A stretch of DNA of 64,000 nt from Micavibrio sp. UBA6212 (GCA_002421905.1 DISK01000014.1:37628-101627), one strand, 5' to 3'. Shown: positions 2,015 through 64,000, counted from the stretch's first letter. Numbers and translations are program-made. The notes: a model not told the origin generated them from the sequence alone.

Positions 2015-2037
2015 GTAGTGTGGGGAATTATGGTGCA

Positions 2038-3519: not shown

Positions 3520-3526
3520 GGATAAC

Positions 3527-4843: not shown

Positions 4844-7260
4844 ATTTATTTAAGAAAAATACTTGTTTCATTTCAAGAAAACCCTGTTCCGAGAGTGGCT
4901 ATAGCCTGATCTCCGTGGCTATCAGTCTGATCATTCTAGGTTTGGTATTTGCAGCAGGTCTGACAGCCTATGGCACATATATGGAGAAACAACGTATAGA
5001 GATAACAGAGAACAATGTGAGGGAAGCCATTTCCGAGATTGAGACTTTTCGTGAAGTCAAAGGAAGATACCCATGCCCATCATCCCTCACAGCAACACGA
5101 AACCTGCCCACATATGGACAAGAAAATGAAGCTGACTGCATTAATGCCGGCCCTGCTATCCCTGCAGGGTCCTGCGTAAACGGTGTCTGTGTCGTAAGCA
5201 GCGAGGCAAGTCGAATAGGTATAGCCCCAACAGTAAGAATAGGGGCTCTTCCTTTCCGAGCACTTCAAATGGATGAGAAGAAAACTTATGATGCCTATGG
5301 ATCTCGCCTGCTTTACGCAGTCACTGAAAGACAAGCCGTTGAAAGTACCTTCTCGGAGACGTCAGGTGGTATTGATATCATTGACGAGAATGGAAATAGC
5401 GTTCTGAACCCTATCGGTAGCGGTAATTTTGTTGTATTGAGCCATGGGCCCAACAAAGTTGGAGCATTTACCAACGGAGGGGCTCAAAGTATAGCCTGCC
5501 CAACGCTTGGGACAAGCCTTGAAGCCAACAACTGTGTTGATTTAGCTTCTCCCCCACCCAATGCGATCTTTAGATCAAGTTTTGCAGCTCTTGCCGGGGG
5601 TGCAACACAATTTGATGACACTATCGACTATTTTTCCACCCTCTTTGATCCGACTTGGAAAAGAATATCATCTAGCCCCAACGATATTCAGGCACTGACA
5701 ACCAATAATCTTGGAGCAGGTGTTTCTTCACCATCAGAGACCATAGAAATTGGTCAGAATGTTAGCACTGCTGCTGGATATGGTGTCGGAAGAACCTGGG
5801 ATGGTGGATTGCGTGTTTCAAGTAGCACTGCTGGCACAAGTCTGCAAGCCAATAAATTCTGCCAACAAAATGGTGCCGATTGTTTTGACATTGAGGATTT
5901 TTCAGGACCAACGGGGATAGAGTGCACAAACCCCGGGGAATATATGGTTGGAATTGAAGGGAACGGTTCAAACGCTACCGCGAAATGTGCCCCTGTCATG
6001 GTTCAATGTCCTACCGGACAAGTTTTGACAGGTGTCAATGCAACAACTGGGGCACCTCTTTGTTCAGCGGCATACACAAACTGTAATGCCGAAAATGTTC
6101 AAATTTGTAATACATCAGGAAATTACGACCCCAAAAGCAGTAATCAGGCTCAAACAAACGCGATTCCTATTTTGAGCGGTGTCCACAACGAGTACAGAAA
6201 TTTGACTGACACAACCCCTTATACTTTTGCCGCAAATCCAAAAGTAGCGAGATTTCGCTGCGATAATGGAATATGGAAATACTATTCCAACATATCCGGA
6301 TTCTGTGGAAACAACTGTACCCCCCCACCTTGGGCTGGCCCTCCAGCTTACACCGGCACCACAAGTTCTACTTCAACAGTTGCATGTAGTGGGGCTCTGG
6401 GAGGCTACGGAGAAACAACAACAAGAACAACAACTTGCTCATTTGTTATCGCAAGCTGTTCGACAAATTGTACGAATGCAGATGGTCCTTGTAACTGCGC
6501 ATCCTACTTCCCCGTCGATGTAAATGGGGATCCCACAACAGGAATATCTGGAAACCCTCCTCCTCCTAAACCTGCGGATATATTAAGCTCGTGTCCTGCA
6601 GGATATAACAGCGGTAGCCTGACTACCTCCCATGTATGGGATAAAACTGATGCCGTTTGTAACTGGAAACTGGGGCCAACTGCAAACACATGCTCGTGTA
6701 ATGCTACCCTTGCTGGCGCGGCACCCACCACAGATCCTGGGAAAGACTGTAATGATCTGATAGTGGGAACATCAGGCCATGCCGATGCTGTTTGGGCATT
6801 TGACTCAACCGCTGGGCAATGTAAATGGAAAGTCACCGGTTACGATACAAGTAGTTGCTCGTGTGATACAACCACAGAACATATATCAACCACACCGCAT
6901 GCCCCGACATGCAATACAGCTTGCGATACAGAAACAACACCAGCCGTATGGGCCTACAAATATATCCTGAGTGGTGGTGTTTGCGTAAAAGACACCGAGT
7001 ACATTAAAACCCCTGCTGTATGTGGTGCTAAGTCCTTCTCTTGGACAGCAATCACATACGTAGACAGTAACGCATCGCTACCATCTGGTATGAAACAATG
7101 TGGAACCAGCTGTAGAACATCTCCTGTAACTCCCCCAGTAACAACACCTCCATATGCTGTTGTTGGAAGTTCTGCGTGTCCTGAGCTGGGTTCAACGGAC
7201 GCATGCTGGAAAGCAGAAGGCGTTTATAAAACATACAATGCCAAATGTCAGGTAAACTAA
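4837..7260 (+). CDS. Giant prepilin-like protein (P3, about 807 aa) with a non-canonical Y+1/S+5 N-terminus and a Cys-rich repeat tail
   Basis: MLNLFKKNTCFISRKPCSESG|YSLISVAISLIILGLVFAAG. Core motifs RIGALPFRAL, DAYGSRLLYAVT, SHGPNKVGAF. The ATG overlaps the P2 stop (ATGTTAA). AGGAGG lies 12 nt upstream. The alternative start at 4804 cannot be excluded. Confidence 0.7.
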   Translation: MLNLFKKNTCFISRKPCSESGYSLISVAISLIILGLVFAAGLTAYGTYMEKQRIEITENNVREAISEIETFREVKGRYPCPSSLTATRNLPTYGQENEADCINAGPAIPAGSCVNGVCVVSSEASRIGIAPTVRIGALPFRALQMDEKKTYDAYGSRLLYAVTERQAVESTFSETSGGIDIIDENGNSVLNPIGSGNFVVLSHGPNKVGAFTNGGAQSIACPTLGTSLEANNCVDLASPPPNAIFRSSFAALAGGATQFDDTIDYFSTLFDPTWKRISSSPNDIQALTTNNLGAGVSSPSETIEIGQNVSTAAGYGVGRTWDGGLRVSSSTAGTSLQANKFCQQNGADCFDIEDFSGPTGIECTNPGEYMVGIEGNGSNATAKCAPVMVQCPTGQVLTGVNATTGAPLCSAAYTNCNAENVQICNTSGNYDPKSSNQAQTNAIPILSGVHNEYRNLTDTTPYTFAANPKVARFRCDNGIWKYYSNISGFCGNNCTPPPWAGPPAYTGTTSSTSTVACSGALGGYGETTTRTTTCSFVIASCSTNCTNADGPCNCASYFPVDVNGDPTTGISGNPPPPKPADILSSCPAGYNSGSLTTSHVWDKTDAVCNWKLGPTANTCSCNATLAGAAPTTDPGKDCNDLIVGTSGHADAVWAFDSTAGQCKWKVTGYDTSSCSCDTTTEHISTTPHAPTCNTACDTETTPAVWAYKYILSGGVCVKDTEYIKTPAVCGAKSFSWTAITYVDSNASLPSGMKQCGTSCRTSPVTPPVTTPPYAVVGSSACPELGSTDACWKAEGVYKTYNAKCQVN

Positions 7261-10285: not shown

Positions 10286-12142
10286 TTATCCCCTCACCTG
10301 CGGCAGGGAGGAATCCATCACCAATCGCGGAGAATGGCTCATCAACTGAACAGACGACAAGGCATTTCCCAACCATGCAGGCAATGACGCTTCGGAACTG
10401 AGCAACTCGAACAAAACCGCCAATGGATTATCGGCAGACGGCAAATGTAGAATTGTCAACTCATGGCGGGATGCCAGACTATTAGTCTTGGCAATCAAAT
10501 CGAGAACATCATTCAATCCACCGATCTCGTCAACCAACCCTTTTTCTTTGGCTTCCCGACCTGTCCAGACATGCCCTTTGGCAATCGCCTCGACCTGCGC
10601 CGTGGTCAAGCTACGCCCCTTCGCTACGCGGAGAATAAAATGGTCATAGACATTATCCAAAGTCAGCTCAAACTGTTTTTGTTCTGACGCAGAAAATGGT
10701 GTATTCATCGACATCATACTGGAATTTTTGCCGTAACTAACGCGCTCCCAGTTTACATCATATTTTTCCCAGAGCTTTTGCAGATTGATCTTGCCACCAA
10801 CCACACCGATTGATCCGGTCAAAGTCGCATCCATTGCATAAATCTTTGTCGCCTCGGTTGAAATCCAGTACCCACCCGACGCGGCGACCGCCCCCATCGA
10901 CACATAAACCGGCTTTTTCTTGATAACCCTCGCCCAATGAACAGCGCGGGCAATGGTCTCGGAAGCACTGGGACTTCCCCCCGGACTATTCACGCGCAAC
11001 ACAATCGCCTTGATACGCTTATTGCGCGCGGCGTCCTTGATAGAATCGGCAATATCATCTGCCCCGACCATAGAATCTTCCATGCTATAAGGCGAACCGC
11101 CACCACCGCGTCCACTGACAATCATGCCCTCCACATGGATGATCGCAACACTGGCTTTCTTGCTTCCCATCAATCTGTCACGTTGCGCAACACGGGAATA
11201 TGTATCCACACTAACCGTGTCAATGTCTCCATATATGCTATCCAACTCGGCAAACAAAGAATCCTCATAATCCATTTTGTCGATCAAACCGGATTTCAAA
11301 GCTTCCTCATCGGTGAGCATTCCAAGATTCAACAGGTCATCAAAAGTTTTTGAAATTTGCGTGCGCTCGGTCTTGATCGGCTCGATCAACTGAGCCGCCA
11401 TGCTATCAATCAGACCTTGCGTTTCTTCACGCGAAGCCATACTCATTTTCGAAGATGTCAAATGCTCCATTGCATTTTTATATTCTTTGCGTTGAAAGAA
11501 CTGTGCCTCAACGCCATATTTTTCCATGACATCCTTGAAGAATGGCATATCGGCACTGATCCCGCCAATCGCCACAACGCCCACGGGCTGCATCCATATC
11601 TCGTCAAAAGCAGAAGCTAGATAATAAAGCCCCAACCCATAACCGGATCCACCATAAGACTCGGAATAGATATAAGTTTTCTTACCCGATTTTTTGAAAT
11701 TCAAAACAGCTTTGCGAATTTCCTGCAACTGGGAAATATCATATCCGGTGCTTGAAACATTCAACGCCAAAGCTTTCACGCGATCATCCTTGATGGCCTT
11801 TTCAATCGAGTCAATCAACATATTGAAGGTCAAAGGCTCATCACGGATATTGAGCAACGCCAGATATTGGGACATACCGCTTTCTTCCGGAATACGTCCA
11901 TCAAGACTCAAGGTCAAAATCATTTGATCGGGAAGAACCGGAACTGCTTTTTTTCCGGCATGCATCGCTGACCAGACACCGATGACCGCAGAAAACAAAA
12001 CCACTGCGCCAATCACCATGCAGGTACGTTTAAGAGCCGTCCATAAGATCCTCCCGATGCGAAATCGCTTGGGCTTTGAAGGCGCTCTAGGAACAGGATT
12101 ATAAACAACTGTACGGCCTTTCAGCCAGCTATGATCAGACAT
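10286..12142 (-). CDS. sppA: Signal peptide peptidase SppA, 67K type (two S49 domains)
   Basis: Duplicated ClpP/S49 fold motifs (ALNVSSTGYD..., VLRVNSPGGSPSASE..., SMGAVAASGGYWIS). Start set at the ATG preceded by GAGGGG. Confidence 0.88.
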   Translation of the reverse strand: MSDHSWLKGRTVVYNPVPRAPSKPKRFRIGRILWTALKRTCMVIGAVVLFSAVIGVWSAMHAGKKAVPVLPDQMILTLSLDGRIPEESGMSQYLALLNIRDEPLTFNMLIDSIEKAIKDDRVKALALNVSSTGYDISQLQEIRKAVLNFKKSGKKTYIYSESYGGSGYGLGLYYLASAFDEIWMQPVGVVAIGGISADMPFFKDVMEKYGVEAQFFQRKEYKNAMEHLTSSKMSMASREETQGLIDSMAAQLIEPIKTERTQISKTFDDLLNLGMLTDEEALKSGLIDKMDYEDSLFAELDSIYGDIDTVSVDTYSRVAQRDRLMGSKKASVAIIHVEGMIVSGRGGGGSPYSMEDSMVGADDIADSIKDAARNKRIKAIVLRVNSPGGSPSASETIARAVHWARVIKKKPVYVSMGAVAASGGYWISTEATKIYAMDATLTGSIGVVGGKINLQKLWEKYDVNWERVSYGKNSSMMSMNTPFSASEQKQFELTLDNVYDHFILRVAKGRSLTTAQVEAIAKGHVWTGREAKEKGLVDEIGGLNDVLDLIAKTNSLASRHELTILHLPSADNPLAVLFELLSSEASLPAWLGNALSSVQLMSHSPRLVMDSSLPQVRG

Positions 12143-14846: not shown

Positions 14847-16433
14847 ATGACAGATATCAAACTTGATAAAACGCAGAAATTTTGCGACCGCTATTCGGAA
14901 GAACTGAATCGTATTTTCCCGAATACGACGTTGCACTATATTTTGCACTACCGGGGACAAAAGCCCGAGCAAATCGCAAAACTTTTGCCGAATCTCCACA
15001 ACCACCCTGCTTATGACGAAGCCGTCTCGTTGCTCAAATTCAGATCCCCCGGGCATGATAACTCCGCGTTTCTGGGAATGGTGATCGGATTCAAGAAATC
15101 AATGCTGGGTCTGAAAAAGTCACCCGAATGTCTGGCCTTCGTTTCAATCAATCTCAACCAGCATGACAAGGAAGAAGATCTTCATTTTGCCATTCATGCG
15201 CTGACTGCCCATTTTCTTGAAACGGTGGACTTTTATACGCGCAAACATGCCGGCACTCAAAGCAATCAAATTCTGCAACCAAAAAGAAACAACATCTCGA
15301 CCTGTCGGCTAAATCTGAAATCCGACGTCTATAGCGTCTTGCAAATGACCTATGAAGGATACGACAACGCGGTTGAAAATCTGGCGCGTAAAAGAGCCCA
15401 CAATGCCGTCACACCGCAAACTGGTCATCCTGAAGAATTCCCCTACCCGATTTCTCTTGATGTAACGAAATTTGCTATTGATAAATTTATCTCGGCCCCG
15501 AAAAAATCTGCGATCAACAGCGCCTATACTCTGGCGCGTCATGTCGCGGCCAGCTTTGACCTTGAAAATATCGAAACATGGATCAACTTTGTAAACCCTG
15601 CACAAACCATGGCGTGGAGTGGCTACAAACCCAGCCAGATTTTAAGTGCGGCGCTCAATACATCGAGCAATCCATTTCTGAAATCAACGGCGCATATGAT
15701 GGGTGAAATTCTTGATATTGAACCAGCCCCACCAGAAAGCCTGCCAACGGGATATAATCCCTTCGCCTTGCCGGAGGTTAATTACATCCAGCACGAACGC
15801 TCGGTCGAAGAAACATTTGAAATGGTTTTGATCCACGCGATGGAGGCAGACAGCCACCTGCCCTTGATCCATGTGGCAAATAACCAGAATGAAGGCTTGC
15901 TCAAAGGACGTTTTTCCGGTTGGTGTGCCCACGCTTTGCAATCTGCTGCCACGGCCTACACGACAGCCTCGGTGCGTGGTATGCCAAGCGGACAGGCCGC
16001 TCGCCTTGAATTCCAAAGTGCGAAACAACAAACAGGCTGGAAAGAACTCAACCACATCGGAAGTTTTGTCACAGACTCTCATAAAAATGGTAAGGCCGTG
16101 ACCTTGTCCGGCATTTCCGAATGGTGTGAACATAATCCACAATACAAAGCCATTCTGGAATCAATCAATATGACTCTGGCTGATCCGGCCTTCGCCAGAA
16201 AGCTGGAAGCCTCGGCGGAAATGCCATCCCCTGGCCCTTTGCCGAAAGCCGCACCACAACGCGCGCGGGCTCACAATTTTGTACCACAAATGGCACCCGC
16301 AGCCGCACCGGGCCTTGCATTGGGTGGTGGCGGCATGGGGGGAGGAAACTTCATGTCCAACCCTCCATCCCGACAAAAACCAGCCCCGTCCGATCTTCTG
16401 GATTTCAACGTCGAAGACGAAACCAAAAACTAG
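14847..16433 (+). CDS. Hypothetical protein (528 aa) with Pro/Gly/Met-rich C-terminal region and acidic tail
   Basis: Long uninterrupted ORF with coding-like composition and no motif I recognise. C-terminus ...APAAAPGLALGGGGMGGGNFMSNPPSRQKPAPSDLLDFNVEDETKN. Confidence 0.6.
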   Translation: MTDIKLDKTQKFCDRYSEELNRIFPNTTLHYILHYRGQKPEQIAKLLPNLHNHPAYDEAVSLLKFRSPGHDNSAFLGMVIGFKKSMLGLKKSPECLAFVSINLNQHDKEEDLHFAIHALTAHFLETVDFYTRKHAGTQSNQILQPKRNNISTCRLNLKSDVYSVLQMTYEGYDNAVENLARKRAHNAVTPQTGHPEEFPYPISLDVTKFAIDKFISAPKKSAINSAYTLARHVAASFDLENIETWINFVNPAQTMAWSGYKPSQILSAALNTSSNPFLKSTAHMMGEILDIEPAPPESLPTGYNPFALPEVNYIQHERSVEETFEMVLIHAMEADSHLPLIHVANNQNEGLLKGRFSGWCAHALQSAATAYTTASVRGMPSGQAARLEFQSAKQQTGWKELNHIGSFVTDSHKNGKAVTLSGISEWCEHNPQYKAILESINMTLADPAFARKLEASAEMPSPGPLPKAAPQRARAHNFVPQMAPAAAPGLALGGGGMGGGNFMSNPPSRQKPAPSDLLDFNVEDETKN

Positions 16434-48783: not shown

Positions 48784-50064
48784 CTATTTTAACTTCAAGT
48801 TCCGCAGGACGGCAAAAGGATTATCATGATCCGCGGCTTCGGCAGAAAAAACTCGAGGTTCATTGCGGAACTCTTTCTTGTCTTTCTTTCGATCATCAAA
48901 TTTCTTTTTCTTGAAATTTTTATGGTCGCCCTCATCTGATTTTTTAGCACCCTTGGCAGCATAACGTTCTTTCGGGAAAGATGGCTTATCCGCGTGTTCA
49001 GGTCGCGGCGACCGTTCAAACCGTGGACGACGTTCGGCTGCCTCAGAATGGATTTTACCACGACGCAGGAAAAAGAAATCCAACTCCGGCTTTTTCTGAG
49101 GCTCTTTTTTCTCTTTTACTTCTACTTTTACGTCTTCTGGCGCGGCTGCTTCTGGAGCTTCTGGAACTTCTGCAGGTTTTTCTTCAACCACACTCTCGAC
49201 AACAGCAACAGACTCAACTGCCGAAGGAACATCATTGGCATTGGCAATCTCAGCAATTTCAGCAACAGGTTCCACAACTGGCGGCGCTTCAATCCGTTTA
49301 TGACCCATAGAATCCAGAATGGCATAAAGATCGACAATCGGACATCCCATCCATTCTGCCATAGAATGTTGGGCTTGAAACTTGCCACCCTTGGCACCGT
49401 CATAAACTGCATTAATCACACGATCCAGCATATCAATCCGGATCACGCGTGGCCCATAAAGCGGATAACCAATCGCACGGTAAAAATCAGGGTTGGCCGT
49501 TGTGACATCGACCACAACCGACATCGCACCGTCTTTTGGTACGGGCGCAGGCAATGGCTGATCGTGGTACAAGCTCCACAACAACCCACGCAAGCGAACA
49601 GCTGCTGGCTTATTGAGATCAGGTAAAAAGATCAACAAGGGCCCAAGACGAACCTTTTTATCGCGCAACATTTTGCGCATCTCAGGATCAAGCAAAGCGA
49701 TCTGGTCTTCGACATCGCCACGCGGGACAATTCCGGTACCAGAGAATAATTTCAAGGAAATGTTACGAACAGGTTCCGGAACAGACTCTGCCATGGCCTC
49801 ATCTGACACCAAAGCAAATAGAGGTTCCAGAACAGTATAGATATGGGCCTTCAACCAGGTGGCCACATGAGCCTGCACAGCATTCGGGTCTTCACTTCCC
49901 AGATCACGCCCCGCAAGAATCTCCACCTCTGGAGCCAGTAAGCTCTCTCCCTTTTTTACAAAAGCCAGAGCCGCTCCCGGCAAGGGGTTTGTGGAATCCG
50001 GCTGGAAGAAAATTTGCCCGTCATCAGCGAGGGTAAATTGTTTAGAGATAGCAGACAAAATCAT
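48784..50064 (-). CDS. Hypothetical protein (about 426 aa) with highly basic Lys-rich C-terminal tail
   Basis: Long ORF. C-terminal ...KKSDEGDHKNFKKKKFDDRKKDKKEFRNE. No motif I can name with confidence. Confidence 0.55.
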   Translation of the reverse strand: MILSAISKQFTLADDGQIFFQPDSTNPLPGAALAFVKKGESLLAPEVEILAGRDLGSEDPNAVQAHVATWLKAHIYTVLEPLFALVSDEAMAESVPEPVRNISLKLFSGTGIVPRGDVEDQIALLDPEMRKMLRDKKVRLGPLLIFLPDLNKPAAVRLRGLLWSLYHDQPLPAPVPKDGAMSVVVDVTTANPDFYRAIGYPLYGPRVIRIDMLDRVINAVYDGAKGGKFQAQHSMAEWMGCPIVDLYAILDSMGHKRIEAPPVVEPVAEIAEIANANDVPSAVESVAVVESVVEEKPAEVPEAPEAAAPEDVKVEVKEKKEPQKKPELDFFFLRRGKIHSEAAERRPRFERSPRPEHADKPSFPKERYAAKGAKKSDEGDHKNFKKKKFDDRKKDKKEFRNEPRVFSAEAADHDNPFAVLRNLKLK

Positions 50065-50254
50065 GGTTGAAATACACACCCTGAAAAATTGGAAACAAGG
50101 GAAACTTATAGCCCCAAACAGCCTTCAATCCAAGCAAAAAGGCATAAAATGGAAAATATTTTTGTATTGGGACACAGCCAGAAAAAACTGCTAAACTGCC
50201 CCACGCAATATATCAAAACTTCAGGCGAAACACCGATCAAGTACAGGAAAAACC

Positions 50255-51772
50255 ATGAAACACATCCCGCGCACACTGCTTTTAACCATGCCGACCGCCC
50301 TGCTGCTTATGTCCACCACGGCCTCTTATGCTGCTATTGACGCCCAAGGCGCTGCAGAACTTAACTCATTGATAAGCAACTATATTCAAGAACAACAAAA
50401 GATCACAGCCGCCACAGGCGCCACTCTGGTGGCTAACGGAGAAACCACCGTCACCCCCCAAGGCACTTATTATTCTGTCGTTTTACCACATCTGATAACC
50501 CGTTATCCGGGGGATGTTGCATCCTATGACATGGGAAAAATTGCGATCAACGCTATGCCGGGCAACACAGATGATGAATGGAAAGTATCTTTCTCGCTGC
50601 CCAGAACTGTTTCTGTAAACACCCCAAAAGACGGTAAAGTTGATTTCCATTTTGGCCAACAAAAAGCGTCAGGCATCTGGAACAGCAAGCTGAACTATAT
50701 GTTCCAGATCAATGCCGAATATAAAAATGTCACTATTGAAAAGACCATGCCAGACACACCTGAACCTCAGACACCTCTGGTCACAATCGGCACAATAAAT
50801 ATCAAACAAAACCTTCGGGAAGATGCACTGAACAGCCAGACATGGTCTGGCCCTGCCGACTTCTCTGCTCAGAATATTCAGACTGACAAGCTATCGATTG
50901 GCGAGGTATCCGCCAATTATATAATCAAAAACATTGATTACACAGTCATGACCAAAATGCGGAATGAATTGAAATCAATGGGAGAGAACAGTCAAAGCCT
51001 GAGTGATCTTCAGAACGACCCGACAGCCGCCCTTAATATGTTTGATGTAATGGCCAAGATGTTTGAGACCCCTATGGGAGAGTTCACATCCGAATTCACC
51101 CTGAAGGACTTGAAAGCAACTGGCTATATGAATGCTCCTCAAACATCGGGTGATGAAGTAACATTGAAATCTGCACATTTTGGTCTGGATATGAATTTAT
51201 CCAATCCCCAAAAAGCCTCAATGGTCTTTCGTCTTGGCCTCAACGGGCTGGATGCCCCCTTTGAAGATAAAAAGGATGTCACCCCGAAAAATGCTGAGCT
51301 AGAAATCAAGGTAGACTCCCTGCCTCTGACAGAACTCGTAAAAACAACCCGTCAAATTGCAGGAGTAGAGATGCAAGGGGCAACTCCGGACGCCACACCG
51401 GTTAAACCCTATCCACAAATTCTGGCCGAAGCCCAAACCAGCTTTTCAAACAAGGTCGATATCAACACCGATATCCTCAATGTTCATGGACAAGGCGCGG
51501 CTCAAGCCTCCGGACAGAGCATGATTGGCCTGACCACCGATCAGAATTGGGAGATCAAAGGACTGGATGCGTTGCTTGAAAAACTGAAAGCTGACCAGAA
51601 AAATCCGAAGATTAGTCAACAGATCGCCCAGAAACTTGCAATTTTACAACTCATGGGGCAAATGTCACCTGATAAGCCAGACACAAGAACCTATCATCTG
51701 GTTGTTGATGGCCAAGGACAGATGACCATGAACGGGGCAGACCTGATGTCCATGATGGGAAATATGAAATAA
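50255..51772 (+). CDS. Secreted hypothetical protein (505 aa; possibly DUF2125-like)
   Basis: Signal peptide MKHIPRTLLLTMPTALLLMSTTASYA|A. The family assignment is a weak recollection only. Confidence 0.55.
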   Translation: MKHIPRTLLLTMPTALLLMSTTASYAAIDAQGAAELNSLISNYIQEQQKITAATGATLVANGETTVTPQGTYYSVVLPHLITRYPGDVASYDMGKIAINAMPGNTDDEWKVSFSLPRTVSVNTPKDGKVDFHFGQQKASGIWNSKLNYMFQINAEYKNVTIEKTMPDTPEPQTPLVTIGTINIKQNLREDALNSQTWSGPADFSAQNIQTDKLSIGEVSANYIIKNIDYTVMTKMRNELKSMGENSQSLSDLQNDPTAALNMFDVMAKMFETPMGEFTSEFTLKDLKATGYMNAPQTSGDEVTLKSAHFGLDMNLSNPQKASMVFRLGLNGLDAPFEDKKDVTPKNAELEIKVDSLPLTELVKTTRQIAGVEMQGATPDATPVKPYPQILAEAQTSFSNKVDINTDILNVHGQGAAQASGQSMIGLTTDQNWEIKGLDALLEKLKADQKNPKISQQIAQKLAILQLMGQMSPDKPDTRTYHLVVDGQGQMTMNGADLMSMMGNMK

Positions 51773-56603: not shown

Positions 56604-56640
56604 ATGCTGTGCATAAACGCAGCATCGTTTATATATATTT
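56604..56640 (+). terminator. Possible terminator after grpE
   Basis: ATGCTGTG...GCAGCAT hairpin followed by a T/A-rich tract. Confidence 0.35.
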
Positions 56641-56775: not shown

Positions 56776-59301
56776 ATGAAACAACCGTTCAAACTGCCTA
56801 TACTTCTTCAGGTCATAACAATATTCGCCCTTTTATTTGCCCCACTGCAAACAGTTCTGGCACAAGATAACTCATCCACGTCACTGCAATACAATGATAT
56901 GCATGAGGACGACTCGCAAAACACCCATTCTCTGAATACTCAGGACAAAATCCAGACTCTGTTCAACAACCTTGAAACGATTGGCAATAGCTATAACTCA
57001 GGAGGAAGCAAGGCCGCAGAACTGGCCCTTCTGGACAGCGGCTGCCAGACTGCCATCGACAGATTTTTGAAAACCAATCTGGTTCACGATCTCACCCCCA
57101 CTTTGAATAAAAGTAAGAGCAGCCCAAATGAAGCTATGGCATGGGTCGATGCAAAGGTCAGTGGCCTGAGCGTCAGGGCAAAAAGTGCTTTCTGTGCCAT
57201 GATGAAAGGCGAGAAGATTGAATCTCTCGATCTCAACGAAACGCTACACTCAACCGTTCGCAATGACATCTTCCCCACGCTTATGATGCAAGGGGTAGGC
57301 TGGGCAAATAACAGCCAGCTTCCCTTCCTGACCCGACTTGAAGTCGAACTCGGCTCCTCTGACGGAGATTTCATCAGCTCCATCACCTCTATACAGCCGC
57401 TCTGGCAAGATCACACCAATACACATCATGTCTTTGCCCAGCTTTCCTATTATAAAGCGCCTGATGAAACCAACGACCAAGGCTTCAAAGTCAAGCATGA
57501 CACCGTCAATGCCGGTGTCGCTTATCGCTATTTGACCCCTGATAAAAAACTCCTGTACGGGGCGAATGTGTTTTTTGACCATGCTCCAAAAAGAAATCAT
57601 AACCGCATGAGCTTTGGTGTTGATGCCCGTACCAGCCAACTGGCTGTCTCTGCAAACCGCTATATGCCTCTTTCCACATGGCGAAGCCTCGATCTTTACT
57701 ATGAAGATCGAGCTGCAGCAGGATGGGATCTCGAATTGCGCGGTCAGGTTCCCGAACTCCCAAGCTGGACAGCCTCAGTCAAAGGGTACCAGTGGGACGA
57801 TCAGGATGATGGCGCAGATTTATATGGAACCACAGCCGCTGTTGAATACTCCCCTATCCCTGCCATGGCGTTTCGTCTTGGCCTGAATAAGGACACACAA
57901 AGCGATCCTTATCTGGAAGCAGCCCTGCGCTTTAATTATCGTTTTGATGATCCGGATGGCCTGCAATGGAAACAAAGAACCGAACTCGCTCCGGTTAGCG
58001 ACTATATCTATGAGAAAGTTCAACGTGAAAATATCATCCGGACAAAAGTTCGCAGAAAACACTCTTCAAAACTGGAAGTTATAGAGACAGCCGGAGCAAA
58101 TACATCTATTGAGACAACCGGAAGCACTTCTTTGTATGTTAGCCAAACTCTCCTGATGCCAGTCACCGTTACGACGGCCAATACAGTTGGAGCTTACGCA
58201 CGACTGAGATTTGCCAAAGGAGCAATCCTGACCTTGGGACAAAATACACAGGTTCAAATTGTCCCCGATCTGATTACTCTGGTAACCGGAACCATTCAGT
58301 ATGTCTCTGATGGTGTCATCACAAACGTCGCAGTTCCAGGAGGAACCATTCAACTTCACGGAACGGATATTGACGTCGTATCAAACGGTATCGACACCAG
58401 TGTTCGTGTCCGCGACGGGTCAATCACCTTAACAGGAACCGTCTCAGGATCAGCAACGATTGGGGCAGCAGAAATGGCGCGCTCAATTGCAGGTGTGGTT
58501 GGAACTGTTGCCTCAGGGACAGCCCCCTATACAACCCATACCGATCAGGTATCAACCCAGATCGACCGTGTTGCCTCCTCTCTGAACGGTGCAAAAGTGG
58601 CTCCATACCCCTATGAATTCCCGCGCATTGTGTCTGAAAATCTAACCCCGGGACAACAGATCGTCATTGGCCTGAAATTCAATGATGCCGTGACCGTATC
58701 CGGTGGAGTGCCCTTTATGAACGTCTCCATCAATGGCAATCTGGGAACCGCGCCTCTGATTGGCGGTAGCGGAACAAATGACCTGATGTTTGGATATACC
58801 GTTCAACCGGCAGATGGTGGCGCAACATCCATTACCATCCTGAATATAGATCAAAACGGTGCCTCTATGATGGGTAATGGTAAGAATGCAATCACTACAA
58901 TTGCAGACGCAACGCTAAACCTTAGTGGTTCGGTATCTGATATAACGCCGCCAGCAGGGTATGCCGTGGCCTTTACGACAACACCAGTAAACATTGCGAA
59001 TGTCGGTGCGGCAGCATTTGAGATTACAACGGCAGAAATCGGCTCAACATACAGCTACACAATTTCCAGCTCGGGAGGTGGAACAAACGTAACTGGCACC
59101 GGTACGATTGCAGGAGCAACAGAAAGCATCACAGGTTTGAACCTTGCAGGATTGAATGATGGAACATTAACCGTCAGCGTAACTCTGACAGATCCATCTT
59201 TGAATGTTGGAACTCCCGTTACAAATACTGCAACAAAAGATGTTGTTGCCCCCTATATTGTATCGGTAACCCCACCTGCAAGCACAACCTACGCGCCGTA
59301 A
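56776..59301 (+). CDS. Inverse autotransporter (intimin/invasin-family) outer-membrane adhesin with FecR-like and Ig-like passenger domains
   Basis: Signal peptide ...LQTVLA|QD. The beta-domain aligns with Yersinia invasin from memory: GANVFFDHAPKRNHNRMSFGVDARTSQLAVSANRYMPLSTW....EDRAAAGWDLELRGQVPELPSWTASVKGYQW versus GVNTFIDHDLSRDHTRLGLGAEYWRDYLKFSANGYIRLSGW....ERPANGWDIRAEGYLPAWPQLGASLMYEQYY. Followed by ...ALRFNYRF and VQRENIIRTK. Confidence 0.85.
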   Translation: MKQPFKLPILLQVITIFALLFAPLQTVLAQDNSSTSLQYNDMHEDDSQNTHSLNTQDKIQTLFNNLETIGNSYNSGGSKAAELALLDSGCQTAIDRFLKTNLVHDLTPTLNKSKSSPNEAMAWVDAKVSGLSVRAKSAFCAMMKGEKIESLDLNETLHSTVRNDIFPTLMMQGVGWANNSQLPFLTRLEVELGSSDGDFISSITSIQPLWQDHTNTHHVFAQLSYYKAPDETNDQGFKVKHDTVNAGVAYRYLTPDKKLLYGANVFFDHAPKRNHNRMSFGVDARTSQLAVSANRYMPLSTWRSLDLYYEDRAAAGWDLELRGQVPELPSWTASVKGYQWDDQDDGADLYGTTAAVEYSPIPAMAFRLGLNKDTQSDPYLEAALRFNYRFDDPDGLQWKQRTELAPVSDYIYEKVQRENIIRTKVRRKHSSKLEVIETAGANTSIETTGSTSLYVSQTLLMPVTVTTANTVGAYARLRFAKGAILTLGQNTQVQIVPDLITLVTGTIQYVSDGVITNVAVPGGTIQLHGTDIDVVSNGIDTSVRVRDGSITLTGTVSGSATIGAAEMARSIAGVVGTVASGTAPYTTHTDQVSTQIDRVASSLNGAKVAPYPYEFPRIVSENLTPGQQIVIGLKFNDAVTVSGGVPFMNVSINGNLGTAPLIGGSGTNDLMFGYTVQPADGGATSITILNIDQNGASMMGNGKNAITTIADATLNLSGSVSDITPPAGYAVAFTTTPVNIANVGAAAFEITTAEIGSTYSYTISSSGGGTNVTGTGTIAGATESITGLNLAGLNDGTLTVSVTLTDPSLNVGTPVTNTATKDVVAPYIVSVTPPASTTYAP

Positions 59302-59304
59302 AAC

Positions 59305-60951
59305 ATGAAAATAAAAGCATCTGCCCTCCTGACTTTCCTGTTTCTGACAGCCGCGTACGAAGTCAAGGCAGCTCCCGCAAATGTTGACTTTACCGTGACC
59401 ATGAGCGAAGCCGCCAACGTCACAGGCTGCCCTGCCAACTGTCCCCGCATCGCCGTCACGGTTGACGGACAAACCCGTTACGCAGAATATAGCGCAGGAA
59501 CAGGATCATCTTCCCTTACCTTTTCCTATGCCCCGACCATTGGCGATCTTGATCTCGATGGTGTAACGCTCACTTCCCCGATTGACCTGAATGGCGGAAC
59601 CATCACCGATCTCAACGGGAACTCAATCACACCACTGACCTATACCGTTCCTGATACCTCCGGCATCAAAATCGACTACCCGTCTCTCTCGATGGATTTT
59701 ACCAACGGCACAGGCGGGCGATACACACTCAACGGCACAGCCTACAACGATCTCTCTTCTTTCCTGACTGCCACCGGTGGGACTTATACACGCGCCAGTG
59801 TAGGAACATATTTCGATTCAACAGGTACACTCCAAACCGCAGCCGCCAACCAACCTCGCTTCGACTATGATCCAGTTACCCACGCCCCAAAAGGCATCCT
59901 CATTGAGGAACAAAGGACGAATTTACTTACAAACGGACAAGGAGCCGGCGCCTCCGGAGTTACAAACCCATCCGGATGGAATATCGACCAAGCTTTCGGA
60001 GGGATTCAGCCGTCTCTAAAAAACAGTGGCATAGACTCTCAAGGCTATGGATATTTTGAGTTCACCATCAACGGAACAACAACACTACCCAATCGATTAT
60101 TGGTTAACCCCGCATCTGCGAGGATAAATATTTTAGCAAATACGCCATACACACTATCGTACAATGTTGAACTGACAAACGGAATCTACCCATACGGTAT
60201 TCAAGCAAGTATTGCATGGTATGATGCATCAAACAACGTGCTATCCAGCAACTATGGCTATGCCCGACATACAGTCGGTTCAAAGATACGTCAATCCGAC
60301 ACTGTAACGTCGCCAGCATCTGCTGCTAAAATGAGAATCTGGTTCGACTTTATTGATTATGGAGCGCCCAATATCGGAAGCAATGAAAACTTCACTATAA
60401 GACTTTCTGGCATTCAACTTGAACAGGGCAGATTTCCTACATCCTACATTCCCACAACAAGTTCTGCCGTAACGCGACAGACCGACACCCTGACCATTCC
60501 AACGAGCGGATGGACAGGCTCTTTTATCGGAACGTTAATGGCGCAATCTGTTATTCCCTATCTGGGGGCATCAACCCGATATCCCGGCATTGCGGCAATG
60601 GATGATGGCTCCATTAGTAATGCTATCCATTTTTTGATAGGTGATCCGGGTGGTGATGAAAAGGCCGCAAGTATGCATTATGGAGGAATCTCCAATTATA
60701 GCTTCTTAAGTAATGCATACATAGTTGGCAATATTTTGAAGCAATGTCTGGCTTATAGCGGAACCTCAACAAATGCGGCACAAGATGGAGTTCTAGGAAC
60801 ATCTGCGGAGGCGCTCTCAATTCCAAATTTGACTACGCTTCGCGTTGGCAATCGCCGCGGAGGAGTTGATCCTCTCAATGGTTGGGTGCAAACAACAAAA
60901 TACTATCCGTTCCGCGTATCTGATGCGCAGTTACAATTGTTAACGCAATAG
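59305..60951 (+). CDS. Secreted protein, paralogue A: conserved Ig-like N-module plus divergent ConA/LamG-like (tail-fibre-like) C-terminal domains
   Basis: Signal peptide MKIKASALLTFLFLTAAYEVKA|APA. Starts 3 nt after the IAT stop. Motifs RFDYDPVTHAPKGILIEEQRTN, IQLEQGRFPTSYIPTTSSAVTRQTD, and terminal ...YYPFRVSDAQLQLLTQ. Confidence 0.75.
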   Translation: MKIKASALLTFLFLTAAYEVKAAPANVDFTVTMSEAANVTGCPANCPRIAVTVDGQTRYAEYSAGTGSSSLTFSYAPTIGDLDLDGVTLTSPIDLNGGTITDLNGNSITPLTYTVPDTSGIKIDYPSLSMDFTNGTGGRYTLNGTAYNDLSSFLTATGGTYTRASVGTYFDSTGTLQTAAANQPRFDYDPVTHAPKGILIEEQRTNLLTNGQGAGASGVTNPSGWNIDQAFGGIQPSLKNSGIDSQGYGYFEFTINGTTTLPNRLLVNPASARINILANTPYTLSYNVELTNGIYPYGIQASIAWYDASNNVLSSNYGYARHTVGSKIRQSDTVTSPASAAKMRIWFDFIDYGAPNIGSNENFTIRLSGIQLEQGRFPTSYIPTTSSAVTRQTDTLTIPTSGWTGSFIGTLMAQSVIPYLGASTRYPGIAAMDDGSISNAIHFLIGDPGGDEKAASMHYGGISNYSFLSNAYIVGNILKQCLAYSGTSTNAAQDGVLGTSAEALSIPNLTTLRVGNRRGGVDPLNGWVQTTKYYPFRVSDAQLQLLTQ

Positions 60952-60953
60952 AG

Positions 60954-60976
60954 GAAAAGAAAAGAAAAGAAAAGAA
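60954..60976 (+). repeat. Pentanucleotide microsatellite (GAAAA)4 between GAGGA and the start codon of paralogue B
   Basis: gagGAAAAGAAAAGAAAAGAAAAgaaATG, followed by an A7 run in codons 2 to 4 (60980-60986). Confidence 0.9.
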
Positions 60977-62566
60977 ATGAAAAAAATAGTTTCATTTTTG
61001 GGGTTCTCGTTTTTCCTTATCCCATCCACTTGGGCTGCACCAGCCAATGTGGATTTTATCGTTACGATGAGTGAGGCGGTGAATGTGACGGGGTGCCCGA
61101 CTAACTGCCCGCGCATTGCGGTCACTGTTGACGGGCAAACCAGATACGCAACCTACTCCGCAGGGACAGGCACATCGTCTCTCACCTTTTCTTATGCCCC
61201 GACCATTGGCGATCTTGATCTCGATGGGGTCGCGTTAACATCACCAATTGATTTGAATGGCGGAACTATCACCGACCTCAACGGCAATCCTGAAACAGAC
61301 CTAACCTTTACAGTCCCCAATACATCAGGCATAAAAATTGATTACCCGTCTCTCTCGATGGATTTTGTGGCAGACGCAGATGGGCGTTATACAGTCAATG
61401 GGACAGCCTATAATGATCTCTCCTCTTTCCTTGGTGCCACAGGTGGCACATTCACCCGTTCCAGTGTGGGAACATATTTTGATTCAACAGGAACACTTCA
61501 AACTGCGGCCTCAGGCCAACCCCGCTTCGACCATGACCCGGTTACCCACACCCCAAAAGGAATCCTCATCGAGGAAAGCCGTTCAAATAAATTGCTAAAC
61601 AGTTCTGATTTCAACGCCTCTGGCTGGAGTAGAACAGATATTACAGTTAATAGCAGCACAGGGCATATATATAACCTACAAAAGATCACGGAGGGGTCAG
61701 CAGGAACCGCGCTCCTAAGACAAAATGTATTTGGGGCATTTACAGCCGGATCAACAACATACGGTTCATTTTTTGTTTCAAGGGGGAATACAGACTGGAT
61801 TGTTGTAAAAATCAATGAAACAGGGGCTGGAGAAATCGCAAATTTTTGGTTTAATATTGCAACAGGAATCGCAGGATCCATTACAAAAACAGGGGGGAGC
61901 AACGAAACAGCAAAAATTATTCCTATTTCAAGTGGCGTATATAGAATAATTGTAAGCTTTCTCCCAAATCCAACATCAACAAATCGAGGAATTTTGATAA
62001 GTTCTGCAACATCAAACGGCTCTTTATCACGAGTGCCTGGGGCAGAATACTATGTATCATACGCTCAACTTGAACAAGGCTCTTTCCCCACTTCCTATAT
62101 CCCTACCACAAGCGCAGCGGTAACGCGTGCGGCAGAAACGATGACCGTACCAATAAGTTCTTGGTTCAATAATACAAACGGTTCAATTTCTTTTACCGGA
62201 GACGTTATTTCATCTGGAACAGAAGCCACTCCAGGAGGAATTGCTATACATTCAATCGGGAATAATGGTTATTTGTTTTATAAACAAGCGGGCACATTGA
62301 ACCTCTATTCTTTTGTTGGAACGGGGCAAGTTAATATTGGTGCAGTATCAAGTAACACTCTATTTATTGCAGGAATGGCCTATAACACAACGACAGCAAA
62401 AGGGGCATTGAACGGAGTCCTATCTGCTGGTTTTACACCTTCATCTGTCTGGCTGCCGACATATTTGAAAACAAATCAAGCTGGCTCATGGAATGGGCAC
62501 ATCATGAAATATAAATTTTATCCAACTCAATCCTCTGACACCCAACTCCAACTTTTAACACAGTGA
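60977..62566 (+). CDS. Secreted protein, paralogue B (same architecture, different C-terminal domains)
   Basis: MKKIVSFLGFSFFLIPSTWA|APANVDF. RFDHDPVTHTPKGILIEESRSN, AQLEQGSFPTSYIPTTSAAVTRAAE, WNGHIMKYKFYPTQSSDTQLQLLTQ. Confidence 0.75.
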   Translation: MKKIVSFLGFSFFLIPSTWAAPANVDFIVTMSEAVNVTGCPTNCPRIAVTVDGQTRYATYSAGTGTSSLTFSYAPTIGDLDLDGVALTSPIDLNGGTITDLNGNPETDLTFTVPNTSGIKIDYPSLSMDFVADADGRYTVNGTAYNDLSSFLGATGGTFTRSSVGTYFDSTGTLQTAASGQPRFDHDPVTHTPKGILIEESRSNKLLNSSDFNASGWSRTDITVNSSTGHIYNLQKITEGSAGTALLRQNVFGAFTAGSTTYGSFFVSRGNTDWIVVKINETGAGEIANFWFNIATGIAGSITKTGGSNETAKIIPISSGVYRIIVSFLPNPTSTNRGILISSATSNGSLSRVPGAEYYVSYAQLEQGSFPTSYIPTTSAAVTRAAETMTVPISSWFNNTNGSISFTGDVISSGTEATPGGIAIHSIGNNGYLFYKQAGTLNLYSFVGTGQVNIGAVSSNTLFIAGMAYNTTTAKGALNGVLSAGFTPSSVWLPTYLKTNQAGSWNGHIMKYKFYPTQSSDTQLQLLTQ

Positions 62567-62576
62567 GAAATGGATT

Positions 62577-64000
62577 ATGAAGTTTACATATATCATTACA
62601 AGGAGTAAAACGACGAAGAAATCCATAACAACACTCTGGATTGCGTCACTGGCGTTCGCAATGACGATGGGGGGAATGGCATCAGTCTCTTTAGCCGCCC
62701 CTGCAACTATTGATTTTACCGTGACCATGAGCGAAGCCGCCAACGTCACAGGCTGCCCTGCCACCTGCCCACGCATTGCGGTGGATGTTGGTGGGATTAC
62801 TCGTTACGCAGAATACAGTGCAGGAACAGGATCATCTTCCCTCACCTTTTCCTATGCCCCGACCATTGGCGATCTTGATCTCGATGGCGTAACGCTAACC
62901 TCACCAATTGATTTGAATGGCGGAACCATCACCGACCTCAACGGTAATGCCATTACTGATCTGGCCTACACCGCTCCTGATACTTCCGGTATTAAAATCG
63001 ACTACCCGTCTCTCTCGATGGACTTTATAGCAAATGCCGATGGGCGTTATACACTCAACGGCACTGCTTACAATGATCTATCCTCATTTTTAGGCGCTGC
63101 GGGCGGCACATTCACCCGCGCCTCAACCGCAACTTATTATGATTCCACGGGGACACTACAAACCTCATCCAACGATACACCCAGATTTGATTATGATCCC
63201 GCCACCCTCGCCCCAAAAGGGATAATGATTGAGCAAGCCTTTACAAACGGCATAAAAAATTCTGAAGATTTCAGCGTAGCATCCCATTGGACAGCAACCA
63301 ATATCACACTGGATTCAACTTATGTCTCACCAACGGGCAACATAGGTGCAACAAAACTGATTGCAGATACATCCAACGCTACTCACAATCTGATCTCTAC
63401 ACTAAGCGGAGGGGCCAATGCAGTTTTAGGGCAGCCGATTATTGGTTCTGCTTTTGTAAAGGCCGGAGAATACAATCGGATTAGACTCGAACTCTTGCCT
63501 GCAACAATTTTCCCACTTGTCGCTGGAGTTCAAACCCCGCCCAGTGTAACTGTGGACACATCCACTGGAACTATTATCTCTTCGGCAAACACATCATCCA
63601 CCTCAATACAAGCCCTGCCAAATGGCTGGTATCGGGTTTTCTGGGGCAGGACGACAATAAATGCGAATACGGTTCGAGTAAGAGCAATGCTTCAGGATAA
63701 TTCCGGCAACACAACCTTCACAGGAGACGGTACATCAGGAATTTTACTTTGGGGTTATCAGCTTAATATCAATATTCCACACCCTGTTTCCTATATGCCC
63801 TCCAACGGATCATGGGGCATTCACAGCAAAGACGAACTGATACTTCCTCTGAACAGTTGGTATAATCAATCCGCACAAACATTATGGGGGAAAGGTTATT
63901 CAAATGGAGTCTCATCAAGCTCGGCAGCAACTTTGGCAGATATAAACGATAATAGCTTCAATGAACGTTTTCAAATCAGATTTCAAAGCGGCCCACAATA
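62577..64000 (+). CDS. Secreted protein, paralogue C (3' end beyond the window)
   Basis: Own translation: MKFTYIITRSKTTKKSITTLWIASLAFAMTMGGMASVSLA|APATIDFTVTMSEAANVTGCPATCPRIAV... No stop before 64000, so it is absent from the track. Motifs RFDYDPATLAPKGIMIEQAFTN and ...LLWGYQLNINIPHPVSYMPS. Confidence 0.7.
   Translation, partial: MKFTYIITRSKTTKKSITTLWIASLAFAMTMGGMASVSLAAPATIDFTVTMSEAANVTGCPATCPRIAVDVGGITRYAEYSAGTGSSSLTFSYAPTIGDLDLDGVTLTSPIDLNGGTITDLNGNAITDLAYTAPDTSGIKIDYPSLSMDFIANADGRYTLNGTAYNDLSSFLGAAGGTFTRASTATYYDSTGTLQTSSNDTPRFDYDPATLAPKGIMIEQAFTNGIKNSEDFSVASHWTATNITLDSTYVSPTGNIGATKLIADTSNATHNLISTLSGGANAVLGQPIIGSAFVKAGEYNRIRLELLPATIFPLVAGVQTPPSVTVDTSTGTIISSANTSSTSIQALPNGWYRVFWGRTTINANTVRVRAMLQDNSGNTTFTGDGTSGILLWGYQLNINIPHPVSYMPSNGSWGIHSKDELILPLNSWYNQSAQTLWGKGYSNGVSSSSAATLADINDNSFNERFQIRFQSGPQ

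Follow-up and report, generated by a model that had tools for sequence, protein, structure and literature searches.

An inverse autotransporter with tandem phage-type lectin heads: a candidate two-part surface adhesin built around a split Ig-like repeat

Type Ve autotransporters, represented by intimin and invasin, combine a signal peptide and a 12-strand IAT_beta barrel with a C-terminal passenger of immunoglobulin (Ig)-like domains. Such an inverse autotransporter (IAT) is encoded in the DNA considered here, a stretch of 64,000 nucleotides from Micavibrio sp. UBA6212 (GCA_002421905.1 DISK01000014.1:37628-101627), hereafter referred to as the window. Directly behind it lies an array of paralogous genes whose products, termed heads, each carry a signal peptide, an Ig-like N-terminal module (N-module) and a lectin body of the kind found in phages and gene transfer agents (GTAs).

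Related arrangements have been described in other settings. The mosaic adhesive trimer (MAT) fibres of Bdellovibrio bacteriovorus possess a signal peptide, a conserved N-terminal domain of ~130 aa that is presumed to tether the protein to the surface of the producing cell, a trimeric beta-prism shaft and variable, phage-like tips (PMC10769870). The Rcc01080 fibre of the Rhodobacter capsulatus GTA (RcGTA) has been demonstrated experimentally to bind the capsule of R. capsulatus, and is fixed by its N-terminal ten residues to a base protein that has a gene of its own (PMC7296036, PMC10218006). In the pili assembled by chaperone-usher and type V systems, an Ig-like fold is encoded without one of its edge strands, and the strand is supplied by another polypeptide, a process known as donor-strand complementation. 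In this case, the pilin lacks the G strand at its C-terminal end, and an N-terminal extension acts as donor.

In the locus analyzed here, one Ig-like repeat is encoded in two pieces on two polypeptides, with the cut in the loop between strands A and B. The first strand forms the C-terminal tail of the IAT, and the mature heads begin with the remainder. In our view, strand complementation probably serves to dock the heads onto the IAT, and the locus probably specifies a two-part, modular surface adhesin.

The autotransporter and its heads

The IAT gene (56776..59301, on the + strand like all features of the array) encodes 841 aa. Pfam IAT_beta PF11924 matches aa 178-419 (57307..58032; E 1.9e-37, 129.8 bits against a cutoff of 22.3), so that the intimin/invasin barrel reported in an earlier first-pass annotation of the window stands, although not with the extent of aa ~230-420 given there. 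In the AlphaFold 2 (AF2) model, which has a mean predicted local distance difference test score (pLDDT) of 75.7, the barrel is made of 12 strands (aa 187-389). The best Foldseek matches of this model are invasin (4E1T) and intimin (4E1S), with target TM-scores of 0.77-0.79, and the protein is a type Ve inverse autotransporter. Its signal peptide, as read from the sequence, comprises aa 1-29 (MKQPFKLPILLQVITIFALLFAPLQTVLA, with cleavage before QD) and is modelled with a helix at aa 9-19. A helical periplasmic region of low confidence follows at aa 51-179, and Pfam finds no LysM domain in the protein.

The passenger begins with a weakly FecR/PupR-like beta-domain (58036..58503, aa 421-576; pLDDT 85-94), for which Foldseek returns 6ovk_R and the Pfam FecR match stays below cutoff (E 0.001). 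Following a helix, two Ig-like domains are found: a complete domain of the “Nig type” (58609..58923, aa 612-716), which is homologous to the head N-module, and a last domain of the Big type (58939..59238, aa 722-821; 730-821 in the model), whose homologues carry Pfam Big_13. The protein then ends in a conserved 20-residue tail, DVVAPYIVSVTPPASTTYAP (59239..59298, aa 822-841), which is the strand-A segment of a Nig-type repeat. This tail is predicted to be coil, and pLDDT falls below 50 over its last 12 residues (830-841). Neither the AF2 model nor the domain search shows an adhesive C-type lectin-like tip on the passenger; its Ig-like domains simply lead into the orphan strand.

Three tandem head paralogues occur in the window, as had been reported, and a fourth is located beyond its end. 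The full-length locus was read on a 263-kb ENA metagenome contig (L001; window coordinate = L001 + 50976) identified through exact protein matches. Together with two JGI contigs identified likewise, this makes three samples carrying the locus, namely ERZ27315056 and JGI 3300001592 and 3300001594. The paralogues are P1 (59305..60951, 548 aa), P2 (60977..62566, 529 aa), P3 (62577..64000, with the frame open at the window end; 571 aa on L001) and P4 (562 aa). P1 is composed of a signal peptide (aa 1-22), an N-module (59377-59880), a spike-fibre domain (59881-60501) and a C-terminal jelly-roll (60502-60948). The corresponding parts of P2 are aa 1-20 and nucleotides 61043-61546, 61547-62152 and 62153-62563, while P3 presents its N-module (62703-63206) and spike-fibre domain (63207-63848) within the window. 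The N-module comprises Ig strands B-G plus a linker. From the predicted cleavage site to ~aa 200, the P1-P3 proteins are almost invariant, and beyond this point they diverge. At the nucleotide level, the first 300 nt of the N-module are 76-84% identical, lower than the 80-100% originally claimed. The motifs said to bracket the divergent domains, RFD(Y/H)DP...KGI(L/M)IE and QLEQG.FPTSYIPT, are present, and complete copies end in ...YYP..S..QLQLLTQ.

The divergent part of the heads had been likened to tail-fibre lectins of the Laminin_G_3 type. Its homology and fold agree with this description, whereas membership of the Pfam family does not: PF13385 gives no match to P1-P3 even at E up to 1, and Pfam finds no Big, cadherin or other family in the paralogues. 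By contrast, NCBIfam NF048003, the phage/GTA head spike fibre domain, matches P1-P3 over nearly its full length with 61.2, 125.4 and 84.6 bits (cutoff 36). PHROG 5939, annotated as “tail protein”, matches from aa ~125 to the end with E values of 1.8e-52, 2.8e-56 and 2.4e-41, the match covering the C-terminal half of the 801-position profile. Residues 136-429 of P2 align with RcGTA Rcc01080 (PDB 6TB9, 6TSU) over ~295 residues at E 1.6e-21, and tblastn yields 27-31% identity to tail-fibre genes of cyanomyophages, RcapMu and rV5-like coliphages.

Structural comparison points in the same direction. The AF2 model of P2 (pLDDT 88.8; predicted TM-score 0.82) shows an Ig-like module followed by two jelly-rolls, with no shaft. 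Among PDB entries, Foldseek ranks baseplate proteins of the Pseudomonas phages Pa193 and E217 highest, ahead of tandem LamG pairs, galectins and the lectin domains of trans-sialidases. In BFVD, the model matches tail fibres of coliphages and ConA-like proteins from uncultured Caudovirales (TM-score ~0.6/0.77, root-mean-square deviation 3-5 Å, 400-450 columns). The C-terminal two-thirds of the paralogues are thus a lectin body of the phage/GTA receptor-binding type, and homology to Rcc01080 suggests that glycans are the class of ligand bound.

Each paralogue was also said to possess its own Sec signal peptide, and a survey of the head family bears this out. An AxA-type site is located 0-1 residue before the start of the module in 87 of 88 members, preceded by a pre-sequence of 18-48 aa, and in 84 of these 87 the pre-sequence contains a hydrophobic core with a Kyte-Doolittle mean of at least 1.6.

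A side observation concerns the signal peptides of P3 and P4, whose long N-regions (..IARSKATKxSITTLWIASLAFAMT..) resemble a translated palindromic repeat of the repetitive extragenic palindrome (REP) kind (CATTGCGAGGAGTAA...). Such repeats often appear as spurious open reading frames (ORFs) in bacterial genomes. The stretch is found at 62590-62665 of the window, and also at L001 13330-13420, in the second and third paralogues of L006 and in the first of L017; only a weak inverted repeat of 11 nt was detected in it. It may mark junctions of cassette recombination or affect translation.

An Ig-like repeat split between two polypeptides

The N-module had been described as akin to a repeat in the IAT passenger. 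By BLASTP the resemblance is weak (IAT against P2, E 0.06, ~27% protein identity), and it is the profile of the head Ig family that establishes it. This profile matches the window IAT at E 6e-8 and, with E values from 1e-7 to 1e-15, the passenger of almost every IAT homologue at residues ~600-715. A profile search of the whole library identified the head Ig module as the repeat unit of giant adhesin-like proteins, with 75,229 representatives and 10-38 repeats in the top matches. A repeat consensus that includes the 30 residues before the profile start was obtained from 1,546 units, taken from 135 proteins that all lack an IAT barrel. It reads ..TSGVvVD.vAPvIsSVsPPANGTYka, then GqNvDFTV.FSE.V.VTG.P.

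The C-terminal tail of the IAT corresponds to the first part of this consensus. Among 44 IAT homologues that are not fused to a head, 43 end in KD(V/I)vAP(T/Y)I(V/T)S(V/I)T..A..TY(A/E)P followed immediately by the stop codon, and the exception (P0125) ends differently. The homologues sharing the tail are 49-95% identical overall. A position-specific scoring matrix (PSSM) made from the last 20 of the 30 columns was applied to the IATs. In the window protein, the 20-mer flush with the C-terminus scores 23.0 bits, which ranks it first of 822 windows, is reached by none of 5000 shuffles and exceeds the median of a genuine repeat (14.8 bits). The flush window likewise ranks first in 39 of the 44 un-fused homologues. 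Over 49,585 internal windows the score peaks at 11.9 bits, and fused IATs have negative scores. A C-terminus of this kind is limited to IATs among the 1,451 ORFs of all loci.

The heads supply the other side of the cut. As placed by their AxA sites (87/88), mature heads begin at the column directly after the end of the IAT tail, and they align to the complete Ig domain of the IAT from its position 26-29 only. In the AF2 model of P2, the first strand (25-38) is strand B, whereas the complete IAT domain (617-715) has its own strand A (617-621) before a long strand B (628-642). No A-like segment was found in the N-terminal region of the heads. Because the tail is in register with the repeat, and because mature heads start at the very next position without strand A, a single Ig-like repeat is split across the two polypeptides. 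A composite of tail plus N-module gives a suggestive match to Pfam Big_5 (E 0.048, below threshold).

Linkage, head exchange and a proposed mechanism

The order grpE-IAT-[n heads]-(GNAT)-dnaK recurs in several loci of related metagenome-assembled genomes (MAGs). The number of heads following the IAT is four in the window locus (L001), five in L006, and one each in L005, L009, L010 and L011. In a second type of locus (L007/L017), the IAT is followed by three heads and then by an odd protein with a signal peptide, an Ig, a Big and a Laminin_G_3 domain. This last gene (L007 6108-7433; L008 4466-5791) combines the Ig N-module with a Big domain 41% identical to that of the IAT passenger and a genuine Laminin_G_3 (E 2.8e-19). 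Its architecture differs from that of the other heads and forms a link between these and the IAT passenger. Genes for MobA/MobL and Fic adjoin it.

Natural fusions of IAT and head were detected using profiles built from slices of the head alignment. In six IAT homologues (P0165-P0168, P0170 and P0171; 1105-1205 aa), as well as in L018, the linker, spike and C-terminal domain of a head are fused to the end of the passenger. These fusions join the Big or Ig domain straight to the linker, without the tail, and one fused gene is solitary between motAB and hemB, where separate heads are absent nearby. Operon linkage of IAT and heads is therefore frequent and not obligatory: tail-bearing IATs with no head within 10 kb (L015, L016) and solitary heads (L004) also exist. 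At least the L015 contig appears to encode heads elsewhere, to judge by an IAT and a head protein whose source labels agree and whose contigs are of equal length. Synteny, fusions and the split Ig-like domain all support the connection between autotransporter and paralogues that the first-pass annotation had drawn. Its suggestion that the two dock through a shared Ig-like module fares less uniformly, as the Ig link is upheld and the pairing of two similar Ig modules is not. Completion of the head domain by the IAT tail is the likely principle instead.

Heads are mosaics in the style of tail fibres. Identity among head proteins amounts to 74-92% in the N-module, 21-48% in the spike domain and 24-41% in the C-terminal domain, and IAT backbones that are 95-97% identical carry one, four or five heads. 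The third heads of L001 and L006 are orthologous, with 89% identity in the spike and 86% in the C-terminal domain. The single head of L010 is chimeric: its 5′ 500 nt derive from the first head of L006 (86-96%) and the remainder from the fourth (98-100%). Likewise, L009 and L011 are 97-100% identical over 6 kb, with the exception of a block of ~700 nt that coincides exactly with the spike domain (37-57%). Breakpoints lie in the conserved N-module and in the spike-bracketing motifs. The interchangeability claimed for the heads is thus visible both in cassette number and in the exchange of entire heads, or of the spike domain alone, between near-identical strains.

A mechanism can be proposed on this basis. 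The IAT would act as the stalk, with its barrel in the outer membrane and a passenger of FecR-like, Ig and Big domains ending in a free 20-residue strand. The downstream genes would provide alternative heads, which would be exported by Sec and cleaved at AxA, so that each mature protein starts as an Ig domain without its first strand. Once at the cell surface, a head would be completed by insertion of the IAT tail as the missing strand A. In this way, the stalk could present at its end any of the one to five local heads, or heads encoded elsewhere in the genome. Binding would fall to the hypervariable spike domain, probably with a contribution from the C-terminal jelly-roll, and would be directed at surface polysaccharides of substrates or target cells; the biological target might be a host, prey or other cells. 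Specificities would be reshuffled between strains through recombination in the conserved N-module and at the spike-bracketing motifs.

Several observations weigh against this mechanism. Adding the tail to a mature N-module raised the score against a hidden Markov model of the Ig domain found in the IAT itself by 2.5 bits, and 20-28 of 200 shuffled tails did as well; this test was judged too insensitive, and the PSSM from the 1,546 repeats was used in its place. The glycan assignment draws on homology at ~30% identity. The weakest step is passage of the heads across the outer membrane. The heads carry a Sec signal only, no dedicated exporter is encoded at the locus, and the window encodes no secretion system beyond a pilin-like gene. 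A speculative possibility is type II secretion, a system that is present in Micavibrio (PMC3189940). Finally, AF2 folds the N-module confidently without strand A, and the unpaired IATs and solitary heads described above indicate that each component can occur without the other beside it.

The latter points are also what would be expected if the paralogues were secreted or periplasmic proteins acting on their own, as lectins, as adhesins or as enzymes that degrade glycans, and merely happened to adjoin the IAT, with the tail a vestige of a shortened repeat that plays no part in docking. The use of the Ig repeat and lectin body as common building blocks of giant adhesin-like proteins is compatible with this explanation as well. 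A vestigial tail, however, would be expected to decay or to vary in length, and this one is kept to its last residue in 43 of 44 un-fused IATs that otherwise differ widely. It is also in exact register with the missing strand, members of the head family start precisely after it, and the same family of IATs exists fused to the same kind of head. Independence of the two components is accordingly a possibility that we regard as serious, though unlikely. Fused IATs suggest a further alternative, in which the downstream genes are a reservoir of cassettes that recombine into the IAT to make an adhesin with a new tip, the fusion being expressed rather than a complex, in a manner comparable to orphan CdiA-CT/Rhs modules or pilS cassettes. 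Recombination within the array is evident, and the passenger does contain a domain homologous to the head N-module. Nevertheless, at ~27% protein identity the two are too divergent for homologous recombination, the known fusions join Big or Ig to the linker and omit the tail, and neither a recombinase nor a reverse transcriptase is encoded nearby. Furthermore, each paralogue retains a start codon and a canonical signal peptide, apparently under selection, and a role as mere reservoir seems quite improbable. Derivation of the paralogues from a degraded prophage or GTA, as its tail-fibre or head-spike genes, would account for their homology in sequence and fold to Rcc01080 and phage tail fibres. 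This is scarcely credible and was rejected, since other phage or GTA genes are absent from the 64 kb upstream and 7 kb downstream. In addition, Sec signal peptides replace the N-termini used for attachment to virions, the chromosomal site between grpE and dnaK is conserved in several genomes, and the GC content of the locus is unremarkable.

A broader proposal can also be made, on which we are evenly divided. It portrays the locus as a “plug-and-socket” adhesin in which a universal C-terminal strand on a type Ve autotransporter serves as the plug for strain-variable, separately secreted lectin heads of the phage type, which would lock on as the split Ig domain is completed. Such a system would be combinatorial and rapidly exchangeable, would have arisen from domesticated phage/GTA receptor-binding proteins, and would be widespread in an uncultured alphaproteobacterial clade, the relatives of which bear the labels Micavibrio or Pseudobdellovibrionaceae. 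It might serve in the recognition of prey or partner cells.

Genomic setting, host and comparison with known systems

On L001, the array is preceded by hrcA and grpE and followed by genes for a GNAT acetyltransferase, DnaK, DnaJ and DapB. Past position 64,000, the contig continues with the end of P3, P4, the GNAT gene and dnaK, and genes of phages, reverse transcriptases or recombinases are absent there. A survey of the remaining ORFs similarly found none of these in the rest of the 64-kb window, where housekeeping genes occur instead, in agreement with the first-pass annotation. The GNAT gene (196 aa; L001 15081-15671, just past the window end) was rejected as a component of the system, as it is found only in the closest backbones (L001, L006 and L010) and is absent from L005, L009 and L011.

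The array has the organization of an operon. A terminator-like hairpin after grpE (56604..56625, +; L001 5628-5649) sets that gene apart from the adhesin genes, no internal terminator was found within the IAT-head array, and a strong promoter-like site is seen solely 5′ of dnaK. Intergenic gaps in IAT-head arrays measure 3-33 nt, mostly 25 nt or less, with all genes on one strand. At the junction of IAT and P1, the stop codon TAA is followed by AAC and then by the ATG of P1. The two genes share a reading frame (56776-60951) split only by TAA AAC. A frame would be shared by chance in 1/3 of cases, and a hypothetical read-through of the stop would fuse them across the P1 signal peptide.

Between the P1 stop and the P2 start codon lies a (GAAAA)4 repeat (60954..60973, +) that overlaps the likely ribosome-binding region, next to a Shine-Dalgarno-like GAGG. 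The repeat could act as a slipped-strand switch of P2 translation; its copy number shows no variation among the three samples carrying it. In one JGI assembly (L002), frameshifts at ~4217 and ~11370-11378 split the IAT into 636 + 194 aa and shorten P4. Phase variation was considered as the cause and rejected, because the changes are single-base insertions outside repeat tracts and hence probably sequencing errors.

Elsewhere in the window, a gene with a prepilin-type N-methylation motif is found at 3239-4843. The motif is located at aa 113-138 of the ORF, so that the true start is probably later. This pilin-like gene is flanked by large ORFs with no Pfam match (2020-3519 and 4804-7260, the latter of 818 aa), and the region 2020-7260 may be a cluster associated with a pilus or type II pseudopilin. 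Further sizeable ORFs without a Pfam match occur at 48784-50079 (-, 431 aa), 50255-51772 (+, 505 aa) and 14847-16433 (+, 528 aa). The 505-aa protein is kept at the same position in related MAGs.

The head family comprises at least 767 clusters, almost all annotated as “hypothetical protein”, from MAGs labelled Alphaproteobacteria bacterium, Micavibrio sp. or Pseudobdellovibrionaceae, the family under which NCBI files Micavibrio. The IAT has 54 relatives, the closest of which (95% identity) comes from Alphaproteobacteria bacterium CG1_02_46_17, and scans for it yielded one locus in the genome collection (L010) and 14 in metagenomes. HrcA from the window is 58-70% identical to that of alphaproteobacterial MAGs, 53% to that of a “Pseudobdellovibrionaceae” MAG, 44% to that of a Micavibrio sp. 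MAG and 41% to those of unrelated orders. These values place the host among uncultured alphaproteobacteria, with at best a distant likeness to Micavibrio. An inference of predation was not accepted, since 44% is little different from the 41% shared with unrelated alphaproteobacteria.

The combination of Ig repeat and spike/LamG body also recurs in thousands of giant metagenome proteins (for example P0295-P0432, of 1,000-6,800 aa with up to 38 repeats). The small, signal-peptide-bearing head is therefore a minimal derivative of this very large adhesin superfamily, for which there is apparently no curated domain model.

If the heads do dock on the tail, the system would be the first autotransporter adhesin with an exchangeable binding tip supplied in trans. 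It would unite type V secretion, pilus-like strand complementation and phage-style mosaic receptor-binding proteins, and would illustrate bacterial domestication of phage/GTA receptor-binding modules for recognition at the cell surface. It would also offer, from another lineage, a candidate answer to what holds the conserved end of MAT fibres on the cell. The division of a single domain over two genes lends itself to a direct test using a peptide and recombinant N-module, and the same pair, a 20-residue tag and a domain of ~100 residues, could serve as a natural small protein-coupling pair for surface display.

None of the parts is new in kind: the autotransporter is of type Ve, the lectin is a receptor-binding one of GTAs and phages, and the Ig repeat is common in adhesins. 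An autotransporter that ends in an orphan strand, together with an array of separately exported heads lacking that strand, is not described in the literature searched, as the first-pass annotation had supposed of such an organization. Unlike intimin and invasin, the window IAT lacks LysM and a C-type-lectin tip, its passenger breaks off after the first 20 residues of an Ig repeat, and separate genes with Sec export signals encode the putative binding domains. The RcGTA fibre Rcc01080 (GhsB; 6TB9/6TSU) has a homologous lectin body and is held N-terminally on a separate anchor, the base protein Rcc01079. Heads differ from it in possessing a signal peptide and an incomplete Ig module in place of the (I/L)-G repeat peptide that binds the pentameric capsid base protein (PMC7296036), in their extra C-terminal jelly-roll and in their tandem hypervariable arrays; base protein, capsid and GTA cluster are absent from this locus. 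ConA-like phage tail fibres (PHROG 5939; rV5-like coliphages, RcapMu and cyanomyophage S-CAM4) share the body of two jelly-rolls and the mosaic exchange of specificity domains between conserved flanks, whereas heads are cellular, Sec-exported proteins without a virion context.

Three systems come nearest. In function, the closest parallel is offered by the MAT fibre of Bdellovibrio which, judged from its published description, follows the same logic of many paralogues with swapped tips. MATs are long trimeric beta-prisms with other tip folds and no identified anchor, whereas heads show no trimerization element and have a candidate anchor in the IAT tail. Orphan-tip arrays of cdiA/rhs are the nearest genetic analogue, with tandem alternative modules 3′ of a large surface-protein gene, conserved 5′ homology and strain-variable content. 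In contrast to these tips, heads are complete genes with export signals, encode binding domains rather than toxins and are not accompanied by immunity genes. In mechanism, the closest parallel is the donor-strand complementation of pili, and its counterpart here is inferred. No chaperone or usher gene is present at the locus or in the window, and the polarity is the opposite of that in pilins: heads miss the N-terminal strand A of an Ig-like fold, and the candidate donor is the C-terminal tail of the autotransporter.

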